Virus record (IMG/VR): IMGVR_UViG_3300025840_003125
Length of the DNA: 64,000 nt
DNA from: a virus
Direction: 5' to 3' (one strand)
This document shows, piece after piece, positions 1,643-64,000 of the stretch. A program made the translations under genes and the position numbers. Every line of letters starts with the position of its first letter. The stretch's first letter is position 1. The notes under the pieces were generated by a model, which was given only the letters and a program-made list of their open reading frames with translations, made no database searches and was not told where the DNA came from.

Positions 1643-3955
1643 ATGGTAATGGGAAACGAGTCTATAAACGTCAAAAAAAGAAAAGATAGAGGAACAGAAC
1701 CTCTTAACATTGAAAAGATACATGAAATGGTTGAGTATGCTTGTGAAGATATAACAGGAGTTTCTTCATCACAAGTAGAAATGAAAAGTGGTTTACAATT
1801 TTATGATGGTATTACCACAGACGAAATACAACAGATTTTAGTTAAGTCGGCTGCAGACTTAATAGATTTAAATTATCCAAACTACACTTACGTTGCATCC
1901 CGATTATTACTTTACAGTTTAAGAAAACAAGTTATTGGTAAATTATGGGATCATCCACACCTATATGATCATGTTAAAAAAGTAGTTGAGATGGGACTAT
2001 ATGATAAAGAAATTTTAGAAAACTATCAAAGAAAAGATTTTGATAGAATGGAAAACTGGATCAACCATAATAGAGATTATGATTTTACTTATGCTGGATT
2101 AAGACAAGTGATAGACAAATATCTAGTACAAGATAGAAGTATTAATCAAGTGTATGAAACACCACAATTTATGTATATGCTTATTTCAGCAACGTTGTTT
2201 GCCAAATACCCAAAAGAAACGAGGATGAGTTATGTTAAAAAATATTATGACGCAATTTCGCAATTCAAAATCAATATTCCTACTCCCGTTATGGCTGGTG
2301 TACGAACTCCTTTACGTCAGTATGCGAGTTGTGTACTGGTTGATATTGATGATACCTTACCTAGTATTTTCTCTGGTGATATGGCGATTGGAAGATACAT
2401 CGCTCAAAGAGCTGGAATCGGAATCAATGCAGGAAGGATTCGTGGAATCAATGCAAGGATACGAGGAGGAGAGGTCCAACACACTGGTGTTATACCTTTT
2501 CTTAAAAAGTTTGAGGCAACGGTTAAGTGTTGCACTCAAAATGGAGTCCGAGGAGGATCAGCAACAGTCCACTTCCCAATCTGGCACCAAGAAATAGGTG
2601 ACATTATTGTTCTTAAAAACAATAAAGGTAGTGAAGATAATCGAGTCAGAAAACTTGACTACTCAATACAGTTATCAAAACTGTTTTATGAAAGATTTAT
2701 AAACAACCAAGATATAACTTTATTTTCACCACACGAAGTACCTGAACTGTATGAGGCATGGGGTACACCAGAGTTTGATGAACTTTATGAAAAGGCAGAA
2801 AGAAAAATTAGCGTTAAGAAAAAGAAGATAAATGCACAAGAATTATTTTTTGACATATTGAAAGAACGTGCTGAAACAGGCCGTATCTATATTATGAATA
2901 TTGACCATTGTAATACTCACTCATCTTTTAAAGATAGAGTTTACATGTCCAATCTATGTCAGGAAATAACTTTACCAACCACTCCAATACAACACATTGA
3001 TGGTGAAGGTGAGATTGCTTTATGTATCTTATCTGCCATCAATGTGGGTAAAATAAACAAACGTGATGAACTAGAACCTTTATGTGATTTAGCAGTAAGA
3101 GCATTAGATGAAATAATAGATCATCAAAAGTATCCTATTGACGCTGCTGAAAAATCTACAAAGGCACGTAGAAGTTTAGGTATTGGTTACATTGGTCTTG
3201 CTCATTACCTTGCAAAGAAAGGTTACAAATACGATCAGAAACTTGCATGGCGACAAGTTGATAAACTTACCGAAGCATTTCAATATTTTCTATTAAAGGC
3301 AAGTAATCAACTTGCAAAAGAAAAAGGCCAATGTTCAGCATTTAAACAAACAAAATATGCAGATGGTATACTACCTATTGACACTTATAAAAAAGACGTA
3401 GATGAATTAGTAAAAAGAGATTACACTTACGATTGGGAACATTTAAGAAAAGAAATTAAAGAACATGGTTTAAGACATAGTACATTGTCAGCACAAATGC
3501 CTAGTGAATCTTCTAGTGTAGTTTCAAATGCGACAAACGGTATTGAACCACCTAGAGATTATTTGTCTGTTAAAAAGTCTAAAAAAGGCCCATTAAAACA
3601 GATAGTACCAGAGTATAATAAATTAAAAAACTTCTATACACTACTTTGGGACATGAAGGGGAACGAAGGATATATAAATATCGTTGCAGTAATGCAAAAA
3701 TATTTTGATCAGGCAATAAGTGGTAACTGGTCATATAATCCTGAAAATTATACTGATGGTCAAGTACCAGTATCAGTAATGGCACAAGATTTATTAACAA
3801 CATATAAGTTAGGTTGGAAGACTTCTTATTATCAAAACACATATGATAGTAAAAAAGACGAAGACGAACCCACCCATACAATTGGGTTCCACGATAATGT
3901 GCCTGAAGATAAACCAAAAGAGGAGGACGAGAATTGCGACTCGTGTACAATTTAA
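1643..3955 (+). CDS. nrdA: class Ia ribonucleotide reductase alpha subunit
   Basis: N-terminal ATP cone, PTPVMAG, ASCVL, SNLCQEI, C-terminal CDSCTI. Confidence 0.97.
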   Translation: MVMGNESINVKKRKDRGTEPLNIEKIHEMVEYACEDITGVSSSQVEMKSGLQFYDGITTDEIQQILVKSAADLIDLNYPNYTYVASRLLLYSLRKQVIGKLWDHPHLYDHVKKVVEMGLYDKEILENYQRKDFDRMENWINHNRDYDFTYAGLRQVIDKYLVQDRSINQVYETPQFMYMLISATLFAKYPKETRMSYVKKYYDAISQFKINIPTPVMAGVRTPLRQYASCVLVDIDDTLPSIFSGDMAIGRYIAQRAGIGINAGRIRGINARIRGGEVQHTGVIPFLKKFEATVKCCTQNGVRGGSATVHFPIWHQEIGDIIVLKNNKGSEDNRVRKLDYSIQLSKLFYERFINNQDITLFSPHEVPELYEAWGTPEFDELYEKAERKISVKKKKINAQELFFDILKERAETGRIYIMNIDHCNTHSSFKDRVYMSNLCQEITLPTTPIQHIDGEGEIALCILSAINVGKINKRDELEPLCDLAVRALDEIIDHQKYPIDAAEKSTKARRSLGIGYIGLAHYLAKKGYKYDQKLAWRQVDKLTEAFQYFLLKASNQLAKEKGQCSAFKQTKYADGILPIDTYKKDVDELVKRDYTYDWEHLRKEIKEHGLRHSTLSAQMPSESSSVVSNATNGIEPPRDYLSVKKSKKGPLKQIVPEYNKLKNFYTLLWDMKGNEGYINIVAVMQKYFDQAISGNWSYNPENYTDGQVPVSVMAQDLLTTYKLGWKTSYYQNTYDSKKDEDEPTHTIGFHDNVPEDKPKEEDENCDSCTI

Positions 3956-4653
3956 TGAACGAAGTAATAGACATTTTTAGTAAAAGAAAACATCCATCAG
4001 TTTATGACGATAAGATTATACCTACTGAAACTGAAATAAGAGATATAGTCAGTAAGGCATATCCTTTAGTTACATCATTTAGAAAAATGTACGGATATAA
4101 AATACATGTTTTAGGTCCTAATAAAGAACGTAGTAATCATATATGGGAACTATGCGAAGGATTTAAACAATGGATTGATGATACCCACTATGGTGAAGAA
4201 GCTAGACAAACAAAGAGTATAGGTTTATCACATATACAAACAGCACCTTGGATATTAATTTATACACCAAGAGTTTCTCCTCCTAATGAATATCATGCTG
4301 GTGAAACCGATCATATAGATGGTAAAAGTGTATGGGATGGTCTTAATTGGGATTATATGAATAATCAGAATAGAGAATCTGGTGCAGTAGAAATAGGAAT
4401 GGTTGCTCAAATGATAATGGGTGGTGTATTAGATAAAGGTTATGACACTGGTTTTTGTGTTTGTTTACCAAGATCAGGCGATAAAGGGCTAGAAAAATGG
4501 AAAAATTATCCTTTTTTAGATTTTTATCCTACTGTGATACAAACAATAGGTAAAGCAAAAAAATATCAATATCAAAATAAAACACCAAAACAACTTAAAA
4601 AAGATACAAGGCCACCTATAGATGATATATTTAATTTTGTAGGAAGTAATTAA
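3955..4653 (+). CDS. nitroreductase-fold flavoprotein (paralog 1)
   Basis: Start probably ATG overlapping nrdA stop (TAATG); KRKH..YD..IP, TAPWILIY, VEIGM; clear paralog of 5761..6438. Confidence 0.65.
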   Translation: MNEVIDIFSKRKHPSVYDDKIIPTETEIRDIVSKAYPLVTSFRKMYGYKIHVLGPNKERSNHIWELCEGFKQWIDDTHYGEEARQTKSIGLSHIQTAPWILIYTPRVSPPNEYHAGETDHIDGKSVWDGLNWDYMNNQNRESGAVEIGMVAQMIMGGVLDKGYDTGFCVCLPRSGDKGLEKWKNYPFLDFYPTVIQTIGKAKKYQYQNKTPKQLKKDTRPPIDDIFNFVGSN

Positions 4654-5761: not shown

Positions 5762-6438
5762 TGAATCAACAACCGATCCTAAATTTATTAAATAGAAGAC
5801 AACACGTTATGGCCTACGATACAGAGGACATACCTGAAAAACAATTGATTGAAGATTTATTATGGAAGGCATGGAAAGTTACACCATCTAAAAACAATTT
5901 TATGCCATATAATTGTAATGTATTAGGTCCTGATAAGGTAACAGAAAAACACTCTATATGGATGAAAAGTGTAAAGAATAAAAAACATATAAATGAAAAA
6001 AACATTGAAGATCATAAAGAAGAAGGATACAATCCGTACTTTGAACATATAAGTACAGCACCTTATCTATTAGTATTTACACAAAGGGTATGTGATCCTA
6101 ATGAGTACTACAGAAAGAGAATAGAAAAAGGAGACTACTACGAGCAAATGCACGAAGACGAGGTAGACTCAATGATGAGAACTACAACCGTAGAAGTAGG
6201 AATGTGGATGGCTAATTTATCAGCCTTTGCATTAGAGAAAGGTCTAAATACATCTACAATAGCATGTTTTCCATATAAACCTTTGTCAGCATGGGCAGAT
6301 TTACCTTGGGTAAAACATCCTGTTGTATTGTTAGGTAGTATAGGTAAAGCAAAAGAATTTCGTAGAGAAAGTATGAGTGATGTTGAAAAGAAAGACGACA
6401 AGAAACCAGAACCTGAAACAATAATAAAGTGGATATGA
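5761..6438 (+). CDS. nitroreductase-fold flavoprotein (paralog 2)
   Basis: LLNRRQH..YD...IP...IEDLL..AW..TPSKNN..PY; TAPYLLVF; ALEKGLNTS; VLLGSIGK. Confidence 0.75.
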   Translation: MNQQPILNLLNRRQHVMAYDTEDIPEKQLIEDLLWKAWKVTPSKNNFMPYNCNVLGPDKVTEKHSIWMKSVKNKKHINEKNIEDHKEEGYNPYFEHISTAPYLLVFTQRVCDPNEYYRKRIEKGDYYEQMHEDEVDSMMRTTTVEVGMWMANLSAFALEKGLNTSTIACFPYKPLSAWADLPWVKHPVVLLGSIGKAKEFRRESMSDVEKKDDKKPEPETIIKWI

Positions 6439-6983
6439 TATTAAGACCTACAACAATTATAATGCTTATTGACTTTGAAGGACATCCTGTTTTAGGTGAT
6501 GAGTTTATAAACAATCAACGTTTTTCTACATTGAATGCTTTACTAAATCCTGTACGAGAGAAACCTCTTTTTATTATATCTAATCATCTTCCTCATAGAC
6601 ACAAACGAGTAGAGGAAGTTGCAAAGATGGTAAAAATAGAAAACAGACACATATGGAAAACTATTAATCCAGATGACAGCTCTGTTGAAAGTATTGTTGA
6701 AGAATTAAAACAAATGGATTACAGAATAGAAAATGTTATAATAGGTGGTACAAATATATCTGGTTGTGTGTTAAGAACTAAACCATATAGTGCCATGAGT
6801 TGGGCAAAGAAAGGATATGACGTACAAATATTATCAAACATGTGTGCTGATTATCAAATTACAGGTGTCAACTCATTAGAACAAAATCAAAACTCCGTAG
6901 CGATAGTGTGGCATGAGGTTGCACAAGCAGGGTTTTTTAATAAAGTAAGTTATATAAGGGAGCATGAATGTCAGATAACATAA
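6435..6983 (+). CDS. cysteine hydrolase (isochorismatase/nicotinamidase-fold) protein, paralog 1
   Basis: IIMLIDF (catalytic Asp position), VIIGGTNISGCV (catalytic Cys position), GYDVQILSNMC. Confidence 0.6.
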   Translation: MILRPTTIIMLIDFEGHPVLGDEFINNQRFSTLNALLNPVREKPLFIISNHLPHRHKRVEEVAKMVKIENRHIWKTINPDDSSVESIVEELKQMDYRIENVIIGGTNISGCVLRTKPYSAMSWAKKGYDVQILSNMCADYQITGVNSLEQNQNSVAIVWHEVAQAGFFNKVSYIREHECQIT

Positions 6984-18970: not shown

Positions 18971-19528
18971 GTGAAGACGGTTATATTATTAATAGATTTT
19001 AAAGGACATCCTGCCCTCGGTAGCGAATATCTTAACAATAGGAGATATGCCGAGGTGCAGAAAATCTTAACAGATACACAAATAGATAGATCAAAAATAA
19101 TATTTGCAGTTTCCAAAGGCAATAAAGATTTAAAACTTGAAGAACTTAAATTTATGGCTAAACACCTTGATATTAAGTATTACGAATATGATTCACATAT
19201 AACCTTTGAAGATTTACAAAAACAATTACTTCAACACCACAATTTTTTAATGGGTACAGATAATACACAGATTATAATTGGTGGAACTAATACAGCAGGT
19301 TGTGTTATAAAATCATCTAAACCTATGAACGCAATTAATTCATATATTAAAGGTTATGCAACAACCATATATTTGCCAATGTGTGCTGAATATGAGCAAC
19401 CAGGTATTAATGATATTGAAAGAACAATGGTGTCTTTAGTTGATGTATATAAATGGATTAAAAAGTATGGAGCATATAAAATAAAACTTGAAACAAATTA
19501 TACAGAATTAAATTTACCCAAAAAATGA
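18971..19528 (+). CDS. cysteine hydrolase-fold protein, paralog 2
   Basis: ILLIDFKGHP, IIIGGTNTAGCV, GYATTIYLPMC. Confidence 0.6.
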   Translation: MKTVILLIDFKGHPALGSEYLNNRRYAEVQKILTDTQIDRSKIIFAVSKGNKDLKLEELKFMAKHLDIKYYEYDSHITFEDLQKQLLQHHNFLMGTDNTQIIIGGTNTAGCVIKSSKPMNAINSYIKGYATTIYLPMCAEYEQPGINDIERTMVSLVDVYKWIKKYGAYKIKLETNYTELNLPKK

Positions 19529-20199
19529 ATACACTTATATTATTAATAGACTTTGAGGGTGAAAAAGAATTACAAGATCAGAATTACCTACACAAAAGAT
19601 ATCTTGCTTTAGCGAACATATTATCTAATAGATACATAGATAGAGAAAAATGTTTAGTTGTCTTTAATACTTACAATAAACAGAAATCATGGATAAATCA
19701 ATGGTCTAAACCACTTGATGAAAAATTAAGAGCATTAAGTAAATTTGCATGGATTAATAAATGGCAAGTATTTGAAACATCAAAAGAAACTCAAACTGAA
19801 GATGGCTCAATAAAAGATATAGATATTGATTTTTTTATAGACACAATAAACAAAAAAGTATCAAATTTTCAATTTGATTCTAAAATTACAAAAGTAATAA
19901 TAGGTGGTACAGAAACATCAGGTTGTTGTTTAGATAGTAAAAAACTAGGTGCCTTAAATTGGGTAAAACGAGGTTACGATACAACAATATATTTACCTAT
20001 GATGTGTGATTATTCAACTGAAGGTGATACTTGGTATGAAAAACAACAATGTGGTTTTGTTAGCTTCTGGAGAACAGTAATTAACTCTAATTTAAGACCT
20101 GATTATTATACAAAATTGAGTGTAGAATACAAATATCAATCAATTTTAAAGAAATTACCAATGGTAACAAAAGATAAAAAAGTTGATCCATTAGCTTGA
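19525..20199 (+). CDS. cysteine hydrolase-fold protein, paralog 3
   Basis: ILLIDFEG, VIIGGTETSGCC, GYDTTIYLPMMC. Confidence 0.6.
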   Translation: MNTLILLIDFEGEKELQDQNYLHKRYLALANILSNRYIDREKCLVVFNTYNKQKSWINQWSKPLDEKLRALSKFAWINKWQVFETSKETQTEDGSIKDIDIDFFIDTINKKVSNFQFDSKITKVIIGGTETSGCCLDSKKLGALNWVKRGYDTTIYLPMMCDYSTEGDTWYEKQQCGFVSFWRTVINSNLRPDYYTKLSVEYKYQSILKKLPMVTKDKKVDPLA

Positions 20200-37186: not shown

Positions 37187-37516
37187 ATGTTGAAACCCAA
37201 AGGAACCATGCTAGAGCTAACAGATAACGCAATAAAGAGATTAACTTACATTGCCAATAAGGCAGGCACTCGTTATGTGAGATTAGACATTAAGGGTGGT
37301 GGATGTGCAGGCTTTGAATATAAGTGGAGTACTACGGATACAAGGGAAGATACTGATTGTTTATTAGGCGATATATTAGTAGCGTCTTTAGAATTAGAGA
37401 TGTACTTATTAGGTACAACGCTTGATTGGGTAGAGGAAGAGTTTAGTAGTGAATTTAAGATAACTAATCCTAATAGTAAAAGTAGTTGTGGCTGTGGGGA
37501 GAGTTTTAGCGTCTAG
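37187..37516 (+). CDS. iscA: A-type Fe-S carrier (IscA/SufA/HesB family)
   Basis: GGGCAGFEY, NPN..SSCGCGESF; start probably 37208. Confidence 0.9.
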   Translation: MLKPKGTMLELTDNAIKRLTYIANKAGTRYVRLDIKGGGCAGFEYKWSTTDTREDTDCLLGDILVASLELEMYLLGTTLDWVEEEFSSEFKITNPNSKSSCGCGESFSV

Positions 37517-37583: not shown

Positions 37584-38390
37584 ATGAAATATGAAAAAGC
37601 AGATTTACCTGTATTAATCTCTATGCCACGTGCTGGTTCGCATTACGTAGGTCATTATATAAGACAAGCATATCTTAAACGAGGTATTGTAGGACCTGAA
37701 AATCGTAGTTCGGAGTTTTTTAATAACGAAGACTATAGACAACCTATACAACAGAAAATAAAGTTATTTGAAGATTTAAGAGATAACTTTGGTGTAAATA
37801 TGTTTTCTATCTATCATGGCCATCATATGAGTCAACATATATCAATGCCTAGTAAACCTCATTACACTTATCTATTTGATTGGTTTAAAGACTTCTATTT
37901 AGGTTATACGGTTGTTTTATTAAGACGTAAGAATATATGGAAACACTTTGTATCTTTTACGTTTCATAATATTATTAGAGATGAATTAGACAAGTATGGT
38001 AAAGAAAATGAAATAACACATCCTTGGCATTCTATGAATGTTACAGATGATGATGTATTAAAATCAACAATACAAACATACAACATAAAGTTTAAGTTTA
38101 CGGATGCTCATTTTGAAAAGTTTTTATATTATGTAAGATTTTTTAATGAACATGTAATCAACTATTATAAAGATAAATTAAATGTACATAATCTATGGTT
38201 AGAGGATTGTACTCATAGTAAAATGGTTGATATGTTTATACCAGAAGAACGTAAATTAACTTATACAAATCCTTTTGAACCTAGTAAGATAAAGTATTTA
38301 ACATATTTTAACAATACAATAGAATACAAAGCAAAGTTTACTAATTTATATAATACTCATTTTAAGCCATATGGGTATGAGGTAGATTAA
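37584..38390 (+). CDS. sulfotransferase-like (Stf0/P-loop) protein
   Basis: LISMPRAGSH (5'-PSB-like), EFFN, LLRRKNIWKHFVS (3'-PB-like). Confidence 0.55.
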   Translation: MKYEKADLPVLISMPRAGSHYVGHYIRQAYLKRGIVGPENRSSEFFNNEDYRQPIQQKIKLFEDLRDNFGVNMFSIYHGHHMSQHISMPSKPHYTYLFDWFKDFYLGYTVVLLRRKNIWKHFVSFTFHNIIRDELDKYGKENEITHPWHSMNVTDDDVLKSTIQTYNIKFKFTDAHFEKFLYYVRFFNEHVINYYKDKLNVHNLWLEDCTHSKMVDMFIPEERKLTYTNPFEPSKIKYLTYFNNTIEYKAKFTNLYNTHFKPYGYEVD

Positions 38391-39222
38391 ACGCCCACGC
38401 TTTTTCATAACACCAAAAACATTGCCAACACCATGCAGTAAAGTCTTTAGTTTGTTTACCTGAACCTACACAAGAACGTGTAATAGGAAACAAGTCTTCC
38501 ATTAAACCTTCTTCTTTAAATACACCAGCAACAAATCTTTTATTTACATTTATATAAGGTTGATATACGTTATATGTTATATTAGGTTTGTTTGAAACAT
38601 CACGTCTTGTTTCACCTTGTATTCTTTCTAAATTTTTAGGAGTATAATTGATTTCAGGAAATCTTTCTTTTGCATATTTGGCAAATGCCATACGTATTTG
38701 TACAGGTGGGTTTGCTGTCATACCATCTAATCTAATAGGTCCTTTAAATTGACTCATAAATTCAGGTATTAGTTTATCTAATTGTAAAATCTTTGCAACA
38801 GCAGTTACAGACATATTGCCATATAACTTTTGATTTTCTAACATACTATCTCTTGCTTTAGGCCACCAGCCACCTACTTCTCTATCGTTAAAGTCTTTGA
38901 TTGTTATGTCATTTAACTTACCATTAGGAAACTTCTTTTGTAAATATTCAACTATTTCTCTAGCTGCGTCAGCGTCTTTAGGGGCGTTTACGTCATTACA
39001 CATAAAAGGAAATATTTCTATTTGCGGAAAGTGTTTTAATGTTAAGTATGTTGCTGACGCTGAGTCACAACCACCTGATAATGACATAACTATTTGTTTA
39101 GGTAAAAAATCATCATCAAAGTCAATATCTTTTAATGCTTGTTCTTTATATGGTGATTTGTTTATTTGTTCTTTTATATTTGTCCAAAATTCAATTGTTT
39201 GATTTCCATATGTTAAGTTCAT
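38362..39222 (-). CDS. QueC-like PP-loop ATPase
   Basis: SLSGGCDSA PP-loop; C-terminal TRSC...CWQCFWCYEK Zn motif. Confidence 0.7.
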   Translation of the reverse strand: MNLTYGNQTIEFWTNIKEQINKSPYKEQALKDIDFDDDFLPKQIVMSLSGGCDSASATYLTLKHFPQIEIFPFMCNDVNAPKDADAAREIVEYLQKKFPNGKLNDITIKDFNDREVGGWWPKARDSMLENQKLYGNMSVTAVAKILQLDKLIPEFMSQFKGPIRLDGMTANPPVQIRMAFAKYAKERFPEINYTPKNLERIQGETRRDVSNKPNITYNVYQPYINVNKRFVAGVFKEEGLMEDLFPITRSCVGSGKQTKDFTAWCWQCFWCYEKAWAFNLPHTHMA

Positions 39223-39977
39223 TTTAATGCTCCTTGTCTAACTTGTCTCCAACGTTGTAGTTCTGGTGTAACGTTAAAGTATTCTTCACTTTTTATTTTT
39301 TTAACTCTATTCTTGTCACTAGGTACAGCAAAGTTATCATAAGCCTTTTGTACATTTTTTCTTAATTTTCTACTTCTAGGATCAAAACCTCTATTTGTTT
39401 TTACTAATAATAATGTTATGCCTTCTTTATGTGCAATCTCTTTTGCTTGTTCTATTTCATGTTCATTGTATCCAAATATTATATATTGCCACACTATAGG
39501 GTGACCTGCCTGTACTCCCATTTTCATAGTTTCCCATACTTGTTTAAAATTAGAACCTATACGATACAATTCTGATTTCTCATCTAAACCATCAACACCA
39601 AAGTACCAACAATTTTCTCCTAGACCATAACTATATGCTTTTTCCCACCACTTCTCATCCATGCCTTTTGTATTAGTACCATTAGTTGCAACTCTTAAAC
39701 CTTTACCTAAACCGTCCATCATTTCTAAAAATGCAAGAAAGTCAGGATGATATATTGGGTCTGATATTTGACCACAAAAGGTTATCTGATTTTCATAATA
39801 GTTTAATACTTTTCTAAATTCTGCTTTACCTATATCAAATGATCTTGCTATTCTAGGTAGACCTTCTACCTTTTGTCGTAAACATTGTGGGCAACGTAAT
39901 ATACATCTATGTGATAGATCCATATTAGGTGAAGATAGTTTTTGATTTTGAATATAGAAGTCTGTTAAATGGCTCAT
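39219..39977 (-). CDS. radical SAM protein
   Basis: CILRCPQC; FCGQISDPIYHP; ATNG; FGVDG...YRIG; WQYIIF.YNEH. Confidence 0.9.
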   Translation of the reverse strand: MSHLTDFYIQNQKLSSPNMDLSHRCILRCPQCLRQKVEGLPRIARSFDIGKAEFRKVLNYYENQITFCGQISDPIYHPDFLAFLEMMDGLGKGLRVATNGTNTKGMDEKWWEKAYSYGLGENCWYFGVDGLDEKSELYRIGSNFKQVWETMKMGVQAGHPIVWQYIIFGYNEHEIEQAKEIAHKEGITLLLVKTNRGFDPRSRKLRKNVQKAYDNFAVPSDKNRVKKIKSEEYFNVTPELQRWRQVRQGALK

Positions 39978-40297
39978 TTTTTATAAGTATCTTTTTCTAA
40001 ATTACCACACTTGTATTGGCATTGTTTCAAAGCACAACTTGGATTATTTATTAGCGTATCAAAGAAGTGTTCCCACTCTTTAGATCCATATATATCTTCT
40101 AACTTGTCAACATTTTTTAGTGCAAGGTGATCGTCTTTTAAATGAAAGACTTCCGTTACACCGTGATCGTTTTTAGGATCATCTAACCAACAACAAGGTA
40201 ACATATAACCATCAGATGTATAGGCTGCTGGTTTATGATAACTTTTAGGTTGATATGTTAAACATCTAGGTTTAATTTTTATATCTTTAGGATTCAT
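39974..40297 (-). CDS. stand-alone SPASM/twitch Fe-S domain protein
   Basis: C...AYTSDGYMLPCCW...C...CQYKC; ATG at 40297 follows its own promoter. Confidence 0.7.
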   Translation of the reverse strand: MNPKDIKIKPRCLTYQPKSYHKPAAYTSDGYMLPCCWLDDPKNDHGVTEVFHLKDDHLALKNVDKLEDIYGSKEWEHFFDTLINNPSCALKQCQYKCGNLEKDTYKK

Positions 40298-40303
40298 TTT
40301 TAT

Positions 40304-40332
40304 ATTGTAACACAATCTTAACATAAAGTCAA
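40304..40332 (-). promoter_or_regulatory. sigma70-type promoter (leaderless) for SPASM-rSAM-QueC
   Basis: Minus strand TTGACT-N17-TACAAT with TG; ATG 6 nt downstream. Confidence 0.75.
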
Positions 40333-40333
40333 G

Positions 40334-41755
40334 CTAGTAATACTCCTTTAGTTCAGGAAATACATCAAATAAATTGTACTCCCATTTAGTTCCCTTGTAA
40401 CGTTCATCTATTTGTAATAAGTATTTAATTGTTTCTTTATAGTCATACCCATTATTGTCTTCTCGTAATACTTGTTGTATATCTGGCCACTTTTCATATT
40501 TAGGTATCAGTTCTTGTTTGAGTTTATCAGGCAATACGTTTGCAGCTAATTTTTCGGGACTTCTTATATTAGACCAGTTTATCATAGAGCCTCTTTCCCT
40601 TGTTTCAAATATATCAATATTTTTGTCGTACCATTCAGGCAACTCATAAAATCTAAGCACACTTAAAAACGATATAGCGCCATTAATATTTATTTTTACA
40701 TTAGGGTACTTTCTAACGGTCTTAATGTTATTAACAATCTCATCCCAATTTGATCTTCTTCTAATATAGTTATTATATATTCCTACACTATCAAGTGATA
40801 CGGTAAACTCAAATAAACCAAACTTAGGAATAAAATCTGTAACTTTCATTTTATCCATATTCATAGTTTGCATATTTGTCTGAAATTTTAAAAGCATTTT
40901 TTGACAATCATCAGGCGCCTTTTCTACCAATTTTTCAAGTAACTTATAATATGGTTTCATAACTAATGGTTCACCACCTATAAGTTTCATTGCATAGATG
41001 TAAGGTGCTATATCTACTACCTGATCTGATATTTTATCTAAACTATCATTATCTAAATTAAATGATACTCCTGCTCTAGCATACTTTTGTAATTTTTGTG
41101 AATATATGGTTTGATTATCTAATGCCTTGTGTTGTATTGTTTCTATTCTTTTTGTTGAATCCCAAGGATGGCACATAAAACAATCAAGGTTACATTTGTT
41201 ACCATATACTTTTATCTGTACCTCAAAACATCTATCTTTTATATGACCTCTCAAATCTTCTTGGTATCTTCTTACAGATTTTTTTAGTTCAGGCCATATA
41301 AGTGAATCATTAGTTTGTATTTTAAGTGCAGCTTGTCGCCTTGATCTTCCGTATAGTTTTTCTTGTTTTCTACAAGTTCTACACCATTCATTTGTAAGTT
41401 TTAAATCAGAATTTTCATCTAGCATTTCTGCTCTTAACTTGTTTAGATTTTCATTATTTTCAAACCAATCTCTAAATGTAACGTCATGTATTTTAGGTGC
41501 TAAATGATCGTTGTTTAATTCAGCCCAAGAGCATGGTGCATATCTGCCTCTTGTATTGGTGTATAACATTTGAAAGGGAGCGCTACAGAAAAACATTTTT
41601 TGATCTTTGATTTTTTGTTCAAACTCACCATCACTCCAAGGTTTCATACAACCTGCTTGAAACCATTGACTAGTATCAACTTTACCATCGCCAAGATATT
41701 TGTCGCCTGGACCACCTTTTGTTAGATGTGATTTATCTTTTGTATCTTTTGTCAT
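40334..41755 (-). CDS. radical SAM protein with N-terminal twitch/SPASM domain
   Basis: FCSAPF...APCSW...CRTC; CNLDCFMC; GGEPL; QTN; VSLDS. Confidence 0.9.
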   Translation of the reverse strand: MTKDTKDKSHLTKGGPGDKYLGDGKVDTSQWFQAGCMKPWSDGEFEQKIKDQKMFFCSAPFQMLYTNTRGRYAPCSWAELNNDHLAPKIHDVTFRDWFENNENLNKLRAEMLDENSDLKLTNEWCRTCRKQEKLYGRSRRQAALKIQTNDSLIWPELKKSVRRYQEDLRGHIKDRCFEVQIKVYGNKCNLDCFMCHPWDSTKRIETIQHKALDNQTIYSQKLQKYARAGVSFNLDNDSLDKISDQVVDIAPYIYAMKLIGGEPLVMKPYYKLLEKLVEKAPDDCQKMLLKFQTNMQTMNMDKMKVTDFIPKFGLFEFTVSLDSVGIYNNYIRRRSNWDEIVNNIKTVRKYPNVKININGAISFLSVLRFYELPEWYDKNIDIFETRERGSMINWSNIRSPEKLAANVLPDKLKQELIPKYEKWPDIQQVLREDNNGYDYKETIKYLLQIDERYKGTKWEYNLFDVFPELKEYY

Positions 41756-42518
41756 TTATATACACTTCAATTTTTTCAAACCCATAGTGATAATTTTTAT
41801 ATAGGTCTTCATTTAACATAGATGGGAAAGTCCATCTCTTATCTTCATCGCCATGTTTACCTTCTTTGATACTTATGTCTTTATTAAGTACTTCAGGATG
41901 TTCTAATCTATCCATATCTGGATGAGGATATCCTACACCCACAAGTAGTTTAGGTTCTGACTCTAGTTTTAATAATTTTTGTACATTATCGCCTTTTACA
42001 TCTCTTTCAAAGGCACTACAATAACCTGTTTTATATCCTAGTAAAGCTGCAGCCATAACTAATTGACCAGATGATATACCTATTGATGTATTCTTTTGTT
42101 CTTCTAAAGTATCTATTGCTATTTTAGTTGCGTTTGGTTGTGTAGCAACAATGTGTGTACCACTTCTTATATTTTTAGTTTCATCACAATACACAAAAAC
42201 AACAGGCGCTAGTATTTGTGAATTTGTTACAGCATATCTATGATCGGTAACAAACTTCTTTTTAGTATCTGTAAATATTTTATCTGTTTGAGTATTTGTT
42301 TGAAAAGTAAATAACTTTGTTCGGTTATAGATTTTTCTTATAACATTAGGATTAGTATATACTCTTAAACTATAATGTGTTTCATTTTGCTTTGATGGTG
42401 AGTTAGCTGCAACATAGATAAGTGTTTCTAAATCTTCCTCTGATACAGGTTTAGTCAAATCATAATTACGCTGTGCTTTTTTACATACATCAATAGCATT
42501 CTTTATTTCATCATTCAT
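41733..42518 (-). CDS. nitroreductase-fold flavoprotein (paralog 3)
   Basis: AQRNYD..KPVSEEDLETL...AANSPSKQN; APVVFV; SIGISSGQLVMAAALLGYKTGYC; VGVGYP; ATG at 42518. Confidence 0.8.
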   Translation of the reverse strand: MNDEIKNAIDVCKKAQRNYDLTKPVSEEDLETLIYVAANSPSKQNETHYSLRVYTNPNVIRKIYNRTKLFTFQTNTQTDKIFTDTKKKFVTDHRYAVTNSQILAPVVFVYCDETKNIRSGTHIVATQPNATKIAIDTLEEQKNTSIGISSGQLVMAAALLGYKTGYCSAFERDVKGDNVQKLLKLESEPKLLVGVGYPHPDMDRLEHPEVLNKDISIKEGKHGDEDKRWTFPSMLNEDLYKNYHYGFEKIEVYINDKRYKR

Positions 42519-42523
42519 ATGCC

Positions 42524-42538
42524 TATTTATTATAAATA
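42524..42538. promoter_or_regulatory. back-to-back late promoters
   Basis: TATTTATT (AATAAATA on minus) overlapping TATAAATA on plus. Confidence 0.65.
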
Positions 42539-42597: not shown

Positions 42598-42855
42598 ATG
42601 CCAAAGAAGCATAAGAAAATAACTATATCCTCTCTAAAAAAGAAGGCACCTAAAGTACCTCCTTTCACGTGTATAAAGATTGACAATGTTATAAGTAAAT
42701 TAGAGAAGATAGTAGATAAGAAAAAAGCGTTAGATAAGAAACAATTAAAAGAATTAGTAAAGAAACTTGAGGTATTAAGGGACGCCAATGATAAACTACG
42801 TGATAGTGGGATATATTGGTATGAAAAATTAAAACACTTATTAAAAACGAGGTAG
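42598..42855 (+). CDS. basic hypothetical protein
   Basis: SD AGGAGGT; APKVPPFTC..ID...LEVLRDAN..LR. Confidence 0.75.
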   Translation: MPKKHKKITISSLKKKAPKVPPFTCIKIDNVISKLEKIVDKKKALDKKQLKELVKKLEVLRDANDKLRDSGIYWYEKLKHLLKTR

Positions 42856-43030: not shown

Positions 43031-43963
43031 ATGAGAAAATTATTATTCAGTTTAATTATGATTTTGATGACAACTACATTATATGCAAGGGATCAAATTA
43101 ACATTGTTGGTTCTTCAACAGTTTATCCATTTTCAACAGTAGTCGCAGAAAGATTTGGTAAGTCAGGTAAGTTTCAAACACCTGTCATTGAATCAACTGG
43201 TACTGGTGGTGGAATGAAACTATTTTGTAAAGGCATTGGTACAAACACACCAGATATGTCAAACGCAAGTAGAAAAATAAAACCAAAAGAAGTTAAACTT
43301 TGTAAAGATAATGGTGTTACCGATATTACACAAGTGATTGTAGGTTTAGATGGTATTGCTTTTACAAGTTCAGTACAAGGCAAACAATATAACTTTACAA
43401 AAAAACAACTTTGGGAAGCGATGGCTGATCTAGGATCAAAACCAACTAAATGGTCAGATATTGATCCTTCTTTACCAGACATTAAAATAGCAATACTTAC
43501 ACCACCTGCTACAAGTGGTACAAGGGATGCTTGGAATGATCTAGTAATGAAAAAAGGATGTCCTGAAACTATAAAAGGCAAAGAATGTTTTTTATTAAGA
43601 GAAGATGGTGCAGTAATTGAAGTCGGTGAAAATGATACTTTGATTATTAACAAACTTGTAGGTGAACCAACATACTTTGGTATATTTGGTTTTAGTTATT
43701 ACGATAATTCAAAAGATAAAGTTCAAGCACATACAATTGAAGATGTTAAAATATCTTTATCATCAATACAAGATGGTTCTTATCCAATAAGTCGACCATT
43801 ATACTTTTATGTAAAAAATCAACACATTGATGTAATACCAGGTATTGAGGAATTTGTAAAAGAGTTTACATCTAAAAGAGCTGCAGGTAAAAGAGGTTAT
43901 CTTTTAGATTTAGGATTAGTACCTTTGAAAAGTTTAGATGAATCTATTTCTAAAGTAGAATAA
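43031..43963 (+). CDS. pstS: phosphate ABC transporter substrate-binding protein
   Basis: Signal peptide; GSSTVYP, ESTGTGGG, ASR.IK, SGTRD, YPISRPLYFY. Confidence 0.95.
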   Translation: MRKLLFSLIMILMTTTLYARDQINIVGSSTVYPFSTVVAERFGKSGKFQTPVIESTGTGGGMKLFCKGIGTNTPDMSNASRKIKPKEVKLCKDNGVTDITQVIVGLDGIAFTSSVQGKQYNFTKKQLWEAMADLGSKPTKWSDIDPSLPDIKIAILTPPATSGTRDAWNDLVMKKGCPETIKGKECFLLREDGAVIEVGENDTLIINKLVGEPTYFGIFGFSYYDNSKDKVQAHTIEDVKISLSSIQDGSYPISRPLYFYVKNQHIDVIPGIEEFVKEFTSKRAAGKRGYLLDLGLVPLKSLDESISKVE

Positions 43964-44008: not shown

Positions 44009-45313
44009 TTATAATTTTTCGTGTACCAACTTCATCCAATTATAATTTCTATGGATTGCCATTGTGCTAATGATTTTATTATTTTCAAAATCAATTGTAA
44101 TTGTTTGACCACCAAAACCATCTAATATGAATATTGGTTTATCTCTCTTACCAGAGATACCCATATGAAATTGACCACCGTATGATTTAGTGTGTGAAAA
44201 TGCGTCTGTTGTATTTGCATTATTAGTTTTACCTTTTTTAATTCTGTTTTCATGTAAAGATTTTAAATATTGACCTTCACAAGTATTGTTGTTCCAATCA
44301 TCTAACATTGCAACAGCAACTCTCATATAATCATATCTGGTTAGGTACATTCCATAATTTATAGACAAGTCAGATTTTTTAGATTCACTAGGTTGTTTCA
44401 TCACAACATTATATTCAATACCAATTTTATTTTGAAATATATCTTTTAACATTTTTTTGTATTCTTTAGCACCCATAGTTGACATAACATAACTAGCAAA
44501 AACGTTTGTATTTAAATTTGCATAGTGATATTTGTTTTTACCAGGTGTAGTATTTTTTAATTCTTTTTTTGCAATACTATTTACTGACCATCTATTAGAC
44601 CATCTTTTTGAATTTTTAAAACTACCACCACCTTTGTTATCAACATATTTTTGTGAACCTGACGCCATATTAAGCACGTTAATTATAGGTTGATTTTCAA
44701 ATAAAGTATTTTCTAATACATCCCAGTTCATAGTTTCATGTATACCATTAACATATCCTCTACAAAGAGCATGCCCGTATATATATGACATAATTGATTT
44801 ACCCATAGAGTTTGAAACATACAAAGAATTGTTTTTAAATATTTTACCAAATCTATCTTTAGGTGTAATTTGATCTATTACTATCTCACCATCAACATAC
44901 ATAAGGTAACTTAATAGAGCAGTTTTTTGAAATGCCTTTGTAACTTTCTCATCTTCTGTAAGATTAAAAGTAAACTCTTTATAATTTTTTGATTTCTTTA
45001 TAACGATTTTGTGTTTTTCTTTTACTGGTTCGTTAATATATTTTTTTAGATATTTTTTTAATATCCTATAATCTGGATTTGCATCCCAAGGTATTTCAGA
45101 TGAAGTGCCATTTTCGTAACCTTTCCAAGGTGTATTCTTTGTATTCTTACCTGATACTTTTTTTATTTCTAATGTTTCGCCATCACAACCATTGATGTAC
45201 CATATCTGACTATATTTTTGTTCATGTTTACAAACGTCATGTTCTTCAGCGAATACAGCAGCGGCAGAAAATATAAATGAAAATATTAATATTGTTATCC
45301 AAAGTCTAAACAT
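44009..45313 (-). CDS. exported serine hydrolase, beta-lactamase/PBP (AmpC-like) family
   Basis: Signal peptide; SNSMGKS (SxxK), LNMASG, YANLN (YxN), DGFGGQ. Confidence 0.8.
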   Translation of the reverse strand: MFRLWITILIFSFIFSAAAVFAEEHDVCKHEQKYSQIWYINGCDGETLEIKKVSGKNTKNTPWKGYENGTSSEIPWDANPDYRILKKYLKKYINEPVKEKHKIVIKKSKNYKEFTFNLTEDEKVTKAFQKTALLSYLMYVDGEIVIDQITPKDRFGKIFKNNSLYVSNSMGKSIMSYIYGHALCRGYVNGIHETMNWDVLENTLFENQPIINVLNMASGSQKYVDNKGGGSFKNSKRWSNRWSVNSIAKKELKNTTPGKNKYHYANLNTNVFASYVMSTMGAKEYKKMLKDIFQNKIGIEYNVVMKQPSESKKSDLSINYGMYLTRYDYMRVAVAMLDDWNNNTCEGQYLKSLHENRIKKGKTNNANTTDAFSHTKSYGGQFHMGISGKRDKPIFILDGFGGQTITIDFENNKIISTMAIHRNYNWMKLVHEKL

Positions 45314-63410: not shown

Positions 63411-63894
63411 AGAATATTTAAAAGAACATTTTATAACTGCTCATTTTTGTGACAATGAAAGACAAAACATTGAGATATTAATGACAAATGAAGATAAGAC
63501 AGCAACAATACCATATTACATTCCTTTTGATGAAAATGATGTAAAATATAAAGCATTATCAACCGTTATGAATTTAGATCAATTGCATGAGGCAACGTAT
63601 CAGAAAAAGAAAGACGAAAGACGAGATTTTGAAAATATGGTTTTAGAAATTGCAAAAAAAGACGGTCTAATAATGGACTCAAATAAGATTGACACTAAAT
63701 TTTATCCTAGAGTAGTAGAAGCTATTTTTGGTGATGAAGAAAATTTAGATCACGTTTTTGCTTTAAAACTTGCAATATTTGAGTTAGACGGAATTAAGGA
63801 TTCTAAAAAAGAAGAATTAAAGAAAAAGCTAAGACAATCAAAAACTAAAAGAGATATTATTGCTACTGCTTGTCAGATTTTAGAAAATAGTTAG
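63400..63894 (+). CDS. hypothetical protein
   Basis: SD AAGGAG before ATG 63400. Confidence 0.7.
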   Translation: MLTEEYLKEHFITAHFCDNERQNIEILMTNEDKTATIPYYIPFDENDVKYKALSTVMNLDQLHEATYQKKKDERRDFENMVLEIAKKDGLIMDSNKIDTKFYPRVVEAIFGDEENLDHVFALKLAIFELDGIKDSKKEELKKKLRQSKTKRDIIATACQILENS

Positions 63895-64000
63895 AATACC
63901 AACCAGTCCAACCTTTTTCCATTATATGTTGCATTTGACCAAGTGTACATATACTATATGACAAAGGTTTATAATACAGATAGTCTTTAATTGAAGGACA
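63863..64000 (-). CDS. partial CDS (3' end) entering from the right edge
   Basis: Open frame CPSIKDYLYYKPLSYSICTLGQMQHIMEKGWTGWYSNYFLKSDKQ*. Confidence 0.5.
   Translation of the reverse strand, partial: CPSIKDYLYYKPLSYSICTLGQMQHIMEKGWTGWYSNYFLKSDKQ

Follow-up and report, generated by a model that had tools for sequence, protein, structure and literature searches.

The question raised by this locus is what an uncultured, marine, T4-like phage of SAR11 type does with five tightly packed genes, among them two radical SAM genes and a gene for a QueC-like PP-loop ATPase. An earlier note on the 64,000-nucleotide stretch of IMGVR_UViG_3300025840_003125 analysed here (the window; the whole genome is 165.7 kb) proposed an undescribed phage pathway that modifies nucleotides, virion proteins or glycans, or a small metabolite. 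The pathway does appear undescribed and the evidence favours its glycan or sugar branch, while the known nucleotide routes and a RiPP route are unsupported; the five genes (module A) form one part of two in a bigger gene set that is widespread in phages and whose most likely role is the editing of an unusual amino sugar.

The five-gene minus-strand cluster is real and conserved. Its genes run 5' to 3' in the order nitroreductase, N-twitch radical SAM, 116-aa Cys-rich protein, 252-aa radical SAM and QueC-like PP-loop ATPase (Table 1), linked and on the minus strand as first described, and they are translationally coupled, since successive junctions overlap or nearly abut (23-bp overlap, 9-bp gap, 4-bp overlap and 4-bp overlap). 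A sulfotransferase-fold gene on the plus strand converges on the PP-loop gene, shares 29 bp with its 3' end and adjoins an IscA-like gene, an arrangement already seen in the earlier note and now backed by a fold match for the one and a TIGR00049 match for the other. The neighbour of module A in this phage is gp5, and the fibre region is elsewhere. The two promoters proposed for the operon fared less well. The sole exact copy of the late consensus TATAAATA in the 5' intergenic region, at 42531-42538, is on the plus strand and points away from the operon, and the late promoter as proposed was rejected; an internal sigma-70 promoter is indistinguishable from chance, since 36 sigma-70-like sites were found where 35.5 are expected.

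Table 1. Features of module A, its convergent neighbours and the edge of module B, in window coordinates
Feature	Position	Strand	Remarks
Nitroreductase-fold predicted flavoenzyme	41733..42518	-	261 aa from ATG at 42518; PF00881; first gene of module A
N-twitch radical SAM enzyme	40334..41755	-	473 aa; NF033640
Cys-rich protein	39974..40324	-	116 aa; without family match
Radical SAM core enzyme	39219..39977	-	252 aa; PF04055
QueC-like PP-loop ATPase	38362..39222	-	286 aa; weak QueC/NadE matches at N-terminus
Sulfotransferase-fold protein	37584..38390	+	268 aa from ATG; ORF opens at TTG 37569; predicted structure
A-type Fe-S carrier (IscA/SufA/ErpA-like)	37187..37516	+	109 aa; TIGR00049
Family c28 gene, 3' end (last gene of module B)	63881..64000	-	tblastn; module B extends beyond window

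The core genes of module A are co-conserved, as seen in about 30 close contigs and in 83 wider loci that carry the PP-loop gene. In all close loci (L002-L038) that are long enough, the genes for the 116-aa protein, the 252-aa radical SAM and the PP-loop ATPase are adjacent, and the first always adjoins the second; of the 83 wider loci, 71 have the 252-type radical SAM and 63 have the Cys-rich protein. There is no N-twitch gene in L003, L004, L009 and L012-L015, which are close relatives, and the nitroreductase gene is variable, being present, absent or moved, with a place in 42 of the 83 loci and a position 3' of the PP-loop gene in L017-L019. As module A can lose either of these two enzymes, its exact chemistry would be expected to vary.

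The cluster had also been called an orphan, a description that does not survive the comparison with other phages, where partner families are contiguous with the QueC-like gene. Across the 83 loci these include a DegT aminotransferase (39), SGNH-like proteins (35), a further radical SAM family, rSAM284 (30), and a carbamoyltransferase (25), and an SDR epimerase gene and genes of methyltransferase-like and GT8-like type likewise co-occur with the PP-loop gene. When the co-occurring families were searched by tblastn in this genome, they were found to form a second cassette, module B, at 65.8-76.5 kb, about 23 kb from module A, and the same two-cassette layout recurs in four of five related records. 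From c28 (genome 65,771-66,331) the order is c25, GT8-like, u267, u230, carbamoyltransferase, rSAM284, s102, DegT and two SGNH-like genes, followed by a twitch protein, a radical SAM and u293, the far end lying at genome position 76,467. The glycosyltransferase assignments are weak, GT8 scoring 19.4 bits, below cut-off; the GT8-like gene and other candidate transferase genes sit at the operon end. Relaxed Pfam scans of u230, u199, u293, c25, c28 and s102 returned nothing usable, and no gene of the phage was recognised as a sugar-nucleotide-activating enzyme or as a membrane export component.

The larger of the two radical SAM enzymes in module A is a full-length member of the N_Twi_rSAM family (NF033640; 278.7 bits against a cut-off of 170, profile positions 3-398 of 398), of which we know of no characterised member. 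It joins an N-terminal Cys-rich auxiliary-cluster domain to a CX3CX2C core (CNLDCFMC), matches PF04055 (Radical_SAM) at 47.1 bits, where the cut-off is 29.5, and has a paralogue, 36% identical, elsewhere in the genome between gp23 and uvsY. The 252-aa enzyme carries the same motif as CILRCPQC and scores 33 bits against PF04055, with a weak match to NF033640 (20.8 bits, positions 183-347). Its 116-aa neighbour, in which C21, C44, C45, C102 and C106 are invariant, had been labelled a SPASM protein; this is plausible in view of a weak SPASM match (E 0.008) of an aligned family member in A4 (L062:4588-4962), but the phage protein itself matches no family, BLASTP against the N-terminus of the twitch enzyme gave no significant similarity, and hhalign of its profile against that N-terminus aligned only a G..PCCW stretch at a non-significant probability of 2.3%. 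Judged from sequence, the 116-aa protein is probably a free-standing auxiliary Fe-S subunit, twitch- or SPASM-like, which the 252-aa radical SAM would require as a separate partner; at these low scores (20.8 bits; hhalign 2.3%), the two together may resemble a split, divergent relative of NF033640.

The QueC-like PP-loop family comprises 1,202 clusters at 50% identity and is almost entirely viral. Across 38 sequences (alignments A1 and A3), residues S49, G50, G51, D53 and S54 of its motif SLSGGCDS (SGGxDS) never vary, and the same alignments show an invariant C-terminal C251, C265, C268 and C271 (Cx13CxxCxxC), a putative metal site. The phage protein scores 21.5 bits against the QueC Pfam model (PF06508; cut-off 22), over its N-terminal 50 residues only, and 18.9 bits against the NCBIfam QueC model (TIGR00364; cut-off 150.3), whereas more distant family members align with the QueC model at its two ends, scoring 20-31 bits; a PDB-sequence profile search with A1 matched only the PP-loop N-terminus. 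VIA structure comparison of its AF2 model (pLDDT 93.5) gave Z scores of 12.8 for TilS, 12.6 for Cap9, 11.6 for QueC, 11.3 for NcsA and 11.2 for LarE, and since these scores (Z 11.2-12.8) do not set QueC apart from TilS, NcsA and LarE, thiolation or nucleic-acid chemistry has also to be entertained. QueC (PDB 3BL5) and Cap9 (PDB 9nto) have in common with the phage protein the SGGxDS motif and a four-Cys C-terminus ending CxxCxxC, and match it structurally over residues 41-280. Identity is below 20%, however, and the phage family stands in a DegT context, where N-twitch radical SAMs are its partners and in places are joined to it as fusions. Natural fusions of the PP-loop protein to the N-twitch enzyme (about 744 aa) are found in 10 loci and to the 252-type radical SAM (458 aa) in three (L114-L116), and long PP-loop forms turn up in a representative search as well; the recurrence of such fusions suggests that the family and its radical SAM partners make up an enzyme pair not yet described. 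Among cultured phages, tblastn found no match to the PP-loop protein and megablast none to the module A region.

In preQ0 synthesis the step of QueC comes after that of QueE, a radical SAM enzyme, and T4-like phages are known to glycosylate DNA. A module that modifies nucleotides in phage DNA or RNA, for example one where the QueC-like protein and the radical SAMs build a modified base or a DNA-linked sugar, would fit these precedents and the nearness of the PP-loop fold to the tRNA-modifying TilS and NcsA, but we regard it as very unlikely. The lack of folE, queD and dpdA in the window was confirmed, and a search of the whole 165.7-kb genome, which the earlier note had recommended, found no match to FolE, QueD or TGT/DpdA; QueE was likewise not found there or in 30 related PP-loop-bearing viral records, which also lack FolE and QueD, and TGT/DpdA occurs in none of the 30. 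The deazaguanine pathway was rejected on these grounds, and the QueC-like gene belongs outside a preQ0/dpd pathway. Hydroxymethyl-pyrimidine DNA hypermodification was also rejected, the whole genome containing neither a ThyA-like hydroxymethylase nor ThyX. The two radical SAMs had been judged unlike QueE, which agrees with the NF033640 membership of one and the weak NF033640 match of the other, and the QueC model scores are below cut-off.

Nucleotide-linked keto sugars are substrates for transamination by DegT-family enzymes, and in DesI/DesII and BtrS/BtrN a DegT-type aminotransferase is paired with a radical SAM enzyme. These systems, together with PP-loop enzymes of the PseA/WbpG type (TIGR03573), provide sugar pathways in which DegT aminotransferases, twitch-type radical SAMs and PP-loop ATPases are combined, although an NCBIfam scan gave no sequence-level match to any of these families. 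The phage twitch domain also differs in being N-terminal or a separate protein, and the phage PP-loop enzyme is QueC-like and not WbuX-like, in contrast to the PseA/WbpG N-acetyl sugar amidotransferases. Cellular relatives of the N-twitch enzyme are informative here; 401 genomes were sampled and two Pseudomonadota genomes scored, both with their N_Twi_rSAM genes in polysaccharide loci. In one genome the gene is present four times in tandem, flanked by rmlCD/wzm and by methyltransferase/WbsX genes, and one of these copies is fused to the O-antigen exporter Wzt; in the other the gene adjoins a GT2 and an SDR epimerase. The amino-sugar or glycan reading is favoured because the core is co-conserved and carries fusions, because DegT is present in 25 of the 30 PP-loop-bearing records and TGT in none, because a second cassette exists, and because of these polysaccharide loci and the neighbouring sulfotransferase fold. 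We consider it fairly probable that modules A and B are the two parts of an amino-sugar/glycan modification pathway encoded by the phage, in which module A has an accessory tailoring role.

In such a pathway, module B would supply the DegT-type PLP aminotransferase, SGNH-like proteins, carbamoyltransferase, methyltransferase-like and GT8-like proteins, two unnamed families and more radical SAMs. The PP-loop enzyme may spend ATP on adenylating a sugar intermediate at a carboxylate or carbonyl oxygen, which would ready it for a substitution such as amidation, and the N-twitch radical SAM, touching it, may carry out radical chemistry at an adjacent carbon of the same substrate, the product probably decorating a cell-surface or virion glycan. 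A bolder proposal, which we regard as possible but rather doubtful, is that the two catalyse a transformation new to sugar chemistry, in which ATP activation is coupled to radical substitution, for example to turn a carboxylate into an amide or nitrile or to insert sulfur, and that marine phages use the resulting new modification of surface or virion sugars to change recognition or superinfection; if true, its users would span pelagimyophage-type to jumbo marine phages.

The enzyme set could instead make a free small molecule, like an aminoglycoside or nucleoside antibiotic, that manipulates the host or competitors, given that DegT aminotransferase, twitch radical SAMs, carbamoyltransferase and methyltransferase resemble the aminocyclitol and nucleoside antibiotic clusters of the butirosin, tobramycin and albomycin pathways. 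A similar aminotransferase/radical SAM set of a cyanomyophage has been labelled 'antibiotic synthesis genes' (PMC12801897), a label that carries no test. Set against this are the GT8-like and other candidate transferases at the operon end, the polysaccharide setting of both cellular N_Twi_rSAM contexts, one with its O-antigen exporter fusion, the apparent lack of a scaffold-forming enzyme such as 2-deoxy-scyllo-inosose synthase, and the placement of module B in the cultured Pelagibacter phage Mosig EXVC030M, where it lies beside VrlC in a fibre-linked region; a free small molecule seems unlikely to us. Mosig rSAM284 is 75.6% identical, but Mosig is without the QueC-like and N-twitch genes, neither of which has a match among cultured phages. 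The literature treats radical SAM cassettes only in passing. Pelagimyophages, the same phage group as the phage described here, carry such cassettes and GT8 genes, with a glycosyltransferase-rich host recognition cluster, and the cassettes were given no function (Zaragoza-Solas et al. 2020, PMC7029224).

SPASM/twitch radical SAMs and nitroreductase-fold dehydrogenases are frequent in RiPP clusters. A role for module A in the maturation of a ribosomal peptide, or in direct modification of a protein, might also be suggested by the QueC-like Cap9, which modifies a protein (PDB 9nto title), and by small conserved ORFs in related loci (s102, s85 and s70), but among the translated ORFs of module A no conserved precursor-like gene was seen, the sole small one coding for the Cys-rich twitch-like protein, Pfam and NCBIfam scans gave no RRE or peptidase family match, and the genes co-occur with sugar enzymes, which leaves a peptide or protein substrate highly improbable.

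Returning to the amino-sugar pathway, its cost makes the product worth pursuing: in an iron-poor habitat, phages that infect SAR11 or resemble SAR11 phages, SAR11 being among the most abundant organisms in the ocean, spend 15-20 kb and as many as some seven Fe-S radical enzymes on one pathway, and encode an Fe-S carrier of their own. Identifying the product would explain what a sizeable block of viral dark matter does and could reveal new radical sugar chemistry, as well as a new phage route for surface remodelling.

Three further proteins may take part. The nitroreductase-fold flavoenzyme (PF00881, 41 bits, cut-off 23.5, profile positions 7-167 of 167; without significant similarity to family u230) may perform a redox step. 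The sulfotransferase-fold protein may sulfate the same glycan; it has no Pfam or NCBIfam match, and a PDB-sequence profile search with its alignment A2 returned nothing, but the first 22 VIA rows retrieved with its AF2 model (pLDDT 87.5) are sulfotransferases without exception, with Z 8.0-10.5 over 185-213 aligned residues, and P-loop kinases come next at Z below 8. Sulfotransferases also head the Foldseek results, weakly (E 0.01-0.1), and its atlas features resemble Stf0 clusters (score 0.95-0.96). Against Stf0-type and cytosolic PAPS-dependent sulfotransferases (PDB 1TEX and 5X2B), the fold is the same over about 190-205 residues (Z 10.0-10.5) at about 10% identity. A2 shows conservation of a PRxGS loop near the N-terminus and of an RR...S stretch. 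These may be the PAPS-binding motifs, as they lie where the family would have them. The supply of PAPS is uncertain, as no APS kinase or other phage-encoded PAPS supply was found in the phage and SAR11 hosts are not known to have assimilatory sulfate reduction. This gene is confined to the close T4-like lineage (22 loci). The IscA-like protein, predicted to load the many Fe-S clusters, scores 84 bits against TIGR00049 (cut-off 58.8), with three conserved Cys in the GGGC and CGCG motifs of its translation; it has no close homologue in cultured phages, and its gene is kept beside module A in 22 loci.

Module A lies in a 165,693-bp IMG/VR virus record (CheckV completeness 100%; G+C ~32%), of which the window represents bases 1891-65890, and which carries the T4-like myophage markers gp5, gp23, UvsY, UvsW and UvsX-like genes. 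The best cultured relatives of one tail protein are found in Methylophilales phage Melnitz and the Pelagibacter phages HTVC008M and Mosig, on which similarity the phage is taken to be of the pelagimyophage type. ORF coordinates, junctions and family scans bear out the earlier note's description of five linked minus-strand genes, convergent with an overlapping plus-strand gene beside IscA, and the junctions within module A (one 23-bp overlap, one 9-bp gap and two 4-bp overlaps) have the spacing that would be expected of a single operon. Neither promoter proposed in that note survived: the exact TATAAATA in the intergenic stretch 5' of the nitroreductase gene, read as a late promoter, is one of 10 in the window, all on the plus strand, and faces away from the operon towards an 85-aa ORF with a strong ribosome-binding site (AGGAGG), while sigma-70-like matches, the basis for an internal promoter, numbered 36 against 35.5 expected by chance. 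One more very short ORF precedes pstS, and two genes flanking module A, pstS and that of a 434-aa secreted-looking protein, are kept in related contigs.

Features of the phage genome and of the bacterial locus L162 (window positions unless genome or locus is stated)
Feature	Position	Strand	Remarks
Nitroreductase (module A)	41733-42518	-	PF00881, 41 bits
N_Twi_rSAM (module A)	40334-41755	-	NF033640, 278.7 bits (cut-off 170)
116-aa Cys-rich protein (module A)	39974-40324	-	Nothing in family scans
252-type Radical_SAM protein (module A)	39219-39977	-	33 bits
PP-loop protein (module A)	38362-39222	-	Weak N-terminal matches to NAD synthase, QueC and ThiI (PP-loop region)
Sulfotransferase-like gene	ends 38390	+	Convergent; end 29 bp inside PP-loop gene
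IscA	just upstream of sulfotransferase-like gene		TIGR00049, 84 bits
Exact TATAAATA	42531-42538	+
85-aa ORF	42598-42855	+
PstS-family phosphate-binding protein	43031-43963	+
434-aa secreted-looking protein	44009-45313	-	No family match
Extra u230 and u199 copies	~3955-4650, 5764-6435, 6456-6950, 18977-19516, 19531-20079	+	No family match
Module B	genome 65,771-76,467	-
616-aa B12-binding radical SAM	L062:6536-8386 (genome ~76.5-79.0 kb)	+
Redoxin-like gene	L062:8332-8967 (genome ~76.5-79.0 kb)	+
Asp/Asn beta-hydroxylase-like gene	genome 79.6-80.2 kb
Second full N_Twi_rSAM	L063:4371-5936 (genome ~119.4-120.9 kb)	+	521 aa, 271 bits
DNA-methylase-like gene, 223-aa radical SAM and 98-aa SPASM protein	L064:3372-5579 (genome ~142.4-144.6 kb)	+
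Wzt::N-twitch fusion (bacterial)	L162:8579-11143	-	854 aa

The absence of folE, queD and dpdA noted earlier for the window holds for the whole 165,693-bp genome, in which FolE, QueD and TGT/DpdA have no match anywhere; TGT is also missing in 30 of 30 related viral records tested, and a deazaguanine pathway is rejected for module A. With neither a ThyA-like enzyme nor ThyX in the genome, the known route through hydroxymethyl-pyrimidines to hypermodified DNA is missing as well.

Across 38 aligned family members of the PP-loop protein, the PP-loop motif SGGxDS is kept, as are four cysteines towards the C terminus (Cx13CxxCxxC), and the AlphaFold model of the protein is confident (pLDDT 93.5). Foldseek returned general PP-loop enzymes only (TM ~0.4), and VIA-align placed TilS (Z 12.8), QueC-like Cap9 (12.6), QueC (11.6), NcsA (11.3) and LarE (11.2) all within ~1.5 Z, the QueC and Cap9 alignments extending through the Cys cluster. 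Such a fold is compatible with sulfur insertion of the NcsA/LarE kind and with TilS-like action on nucleic-acid substrates, and the enzyme could conceivably perform either. Searching 1.84 billion representatives with the family profile gave 1,202 clusters (E up to 0.001), and in sampled distant family members the QueC model was the sole match, at both model ends (20-31 bits), so that, together with the structure ranking, the protein is fairly called 'QueC-like', as a member of a sister family and not as QueC proper. This family is almost confined to viruses, with 150 relatives in IMG/VR and two in 185,579 species genomes, both on small MAG contigs, and its nearest clusters in the Atlas are 96-100% viral.

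Co-conservation of these genes is found at two scales. Some 30 close contigs share the order gp5, IscA, sulfotransferase-like gene and then, on the opposite strand, the PP-loop, 252-type radical SAM and 116-aa genes; the N-twitch enzyme and nitroreductase are variable and can be absent, and variants include duplication of the Cys-rich gene or a moved nitroreductase. Of 83 PP-loop loci, counted from clustered ORFs, 71 have the 252-type radical SAM, 63 the Cys-rich protein, 42 the nitroreductase, 39 a DegT aminotransferase, 35 SGNH-like proteins, 30 another radical SAM and 25 a carbamoyltransferase; methyltransferase-like, GT8-like and several unnamed families co-occur as well. The PP-loop protein is naturally fused to the N-twitch radical SAM (~744 aa, ten loci) and to the 252-type (458 aa, three loci), and such fusions strongly indicate joint action of these enzymes.

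The gene set was originally called an orphan cluster; it is real, but not an orphan, since the partner families form a second minus-strand cassette, module B, and module A is thus one half of a split pathway and module B the other. In transcription order, module B encodes u293 (an unnamed family), a radical SAM, a twitch-like protein, two SGNH-like proteins, DegT, s102, the radical SAM rSAM284, a carbamoyltransferase, u230, u267, a GT8-like protein, c25 and c28, the last gene just reaching into the right end of the window. Four of five related records with module A also contain rSAM284, some 25-30 kb off, and the fifth is a 37-kb fragment; DegT occurs in 25 of 30 PP-loop-bearing records, the other five being fragments rated 10-39% complete. 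In the cultured phage Mosig, module B adjoins VrlC while the QueC-like and N-twitch genes are absent, and by this gene content module A seems to be an optional supplement to module B.

As regards a link to glycans, NF033640 scored in two of 401 sampled Pseudomonadota genomes. In one, at locus L162, a tandem array of four N_Twi_rSAM copies is bordered at one end by rmlC, rmlD and wzm and at the opposite end by a WbsX glycosyltransferase and by TylF-like and other methyltransferases; one copy forms a fusion with Wzt, the ATPase of an O-antigen ABC exporter (ABC_tran, Wzt_C, SPASM, Radical_SAM), and three more copies follow it. In the second, the gene has a GT2 glycosyltransferase and an SDR epimerase as neighbours, and prophage recombination genes adjoin. 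These contexts, with the DegT, carbamoyltransferase, SGNH-like, GT8-like and SDR epimerase genes of the phage loci, point to sugar or polysaccharide tailoring. The PP-loop enzyme would adenylate a sugar intermediate at a carboxylate or carbonyl group, the attached radical SAM would modify the same molecule, the 116-aa protein may be a detached auxiliary-cluster domain, the nitroreductase would perform a redox step, and the product would finish on a glycan. Pelagimyophage radical SAM cassettes and GT8 genes have been mentioned in a host recognition cluster, the cassettes being given no function (PMC7029224), and a similar cyanomyophage aminotransferase/radical SAM set was named 'antibiotic synthesis genes', role unclear (PMC12801897).

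The 268-aa sulfotransferase-like protein has no match in family scans; the top 22 VIA rows for its model (pLDDT 87.5) are sulfotransferases (Z 8.0-10.5), ahead of P-loop kinases, and its Atlas features point to Stf0-type clusters. The phage genome has no APS kinase. Within the 83-locus set, conservation of the gene does not extend beyond the close T4-like lineage (22 loci), which ties it to this locus and not to the wider system. IscA is distributed over 22 loci in the same way and lacks close homologues among cultured phages; a role in Fe-S supply to module A would fit this.

The genome holds further radical SAM genes. The second full N_Twi_rSAM is a solitary gene flanked by gp23 and uvsY, well away from modules A and B; the radical SAM/SPASM pair directly precedes the UvsX/RecA gene, in reversed order relative to module A, and is itself preceded by a DNA-methylase-like gene. 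The B12-binding radical SAM and the redoxin-like gene adjoin module B on the opposite strand, and the Asp/Asn beta-hydroxylase-like gene is next. The unnamed families u230 and u199 occur together with the QueC-like gene in 37-38 of the 83 loci, but here their extra copies are scattered over other parts of the genome.
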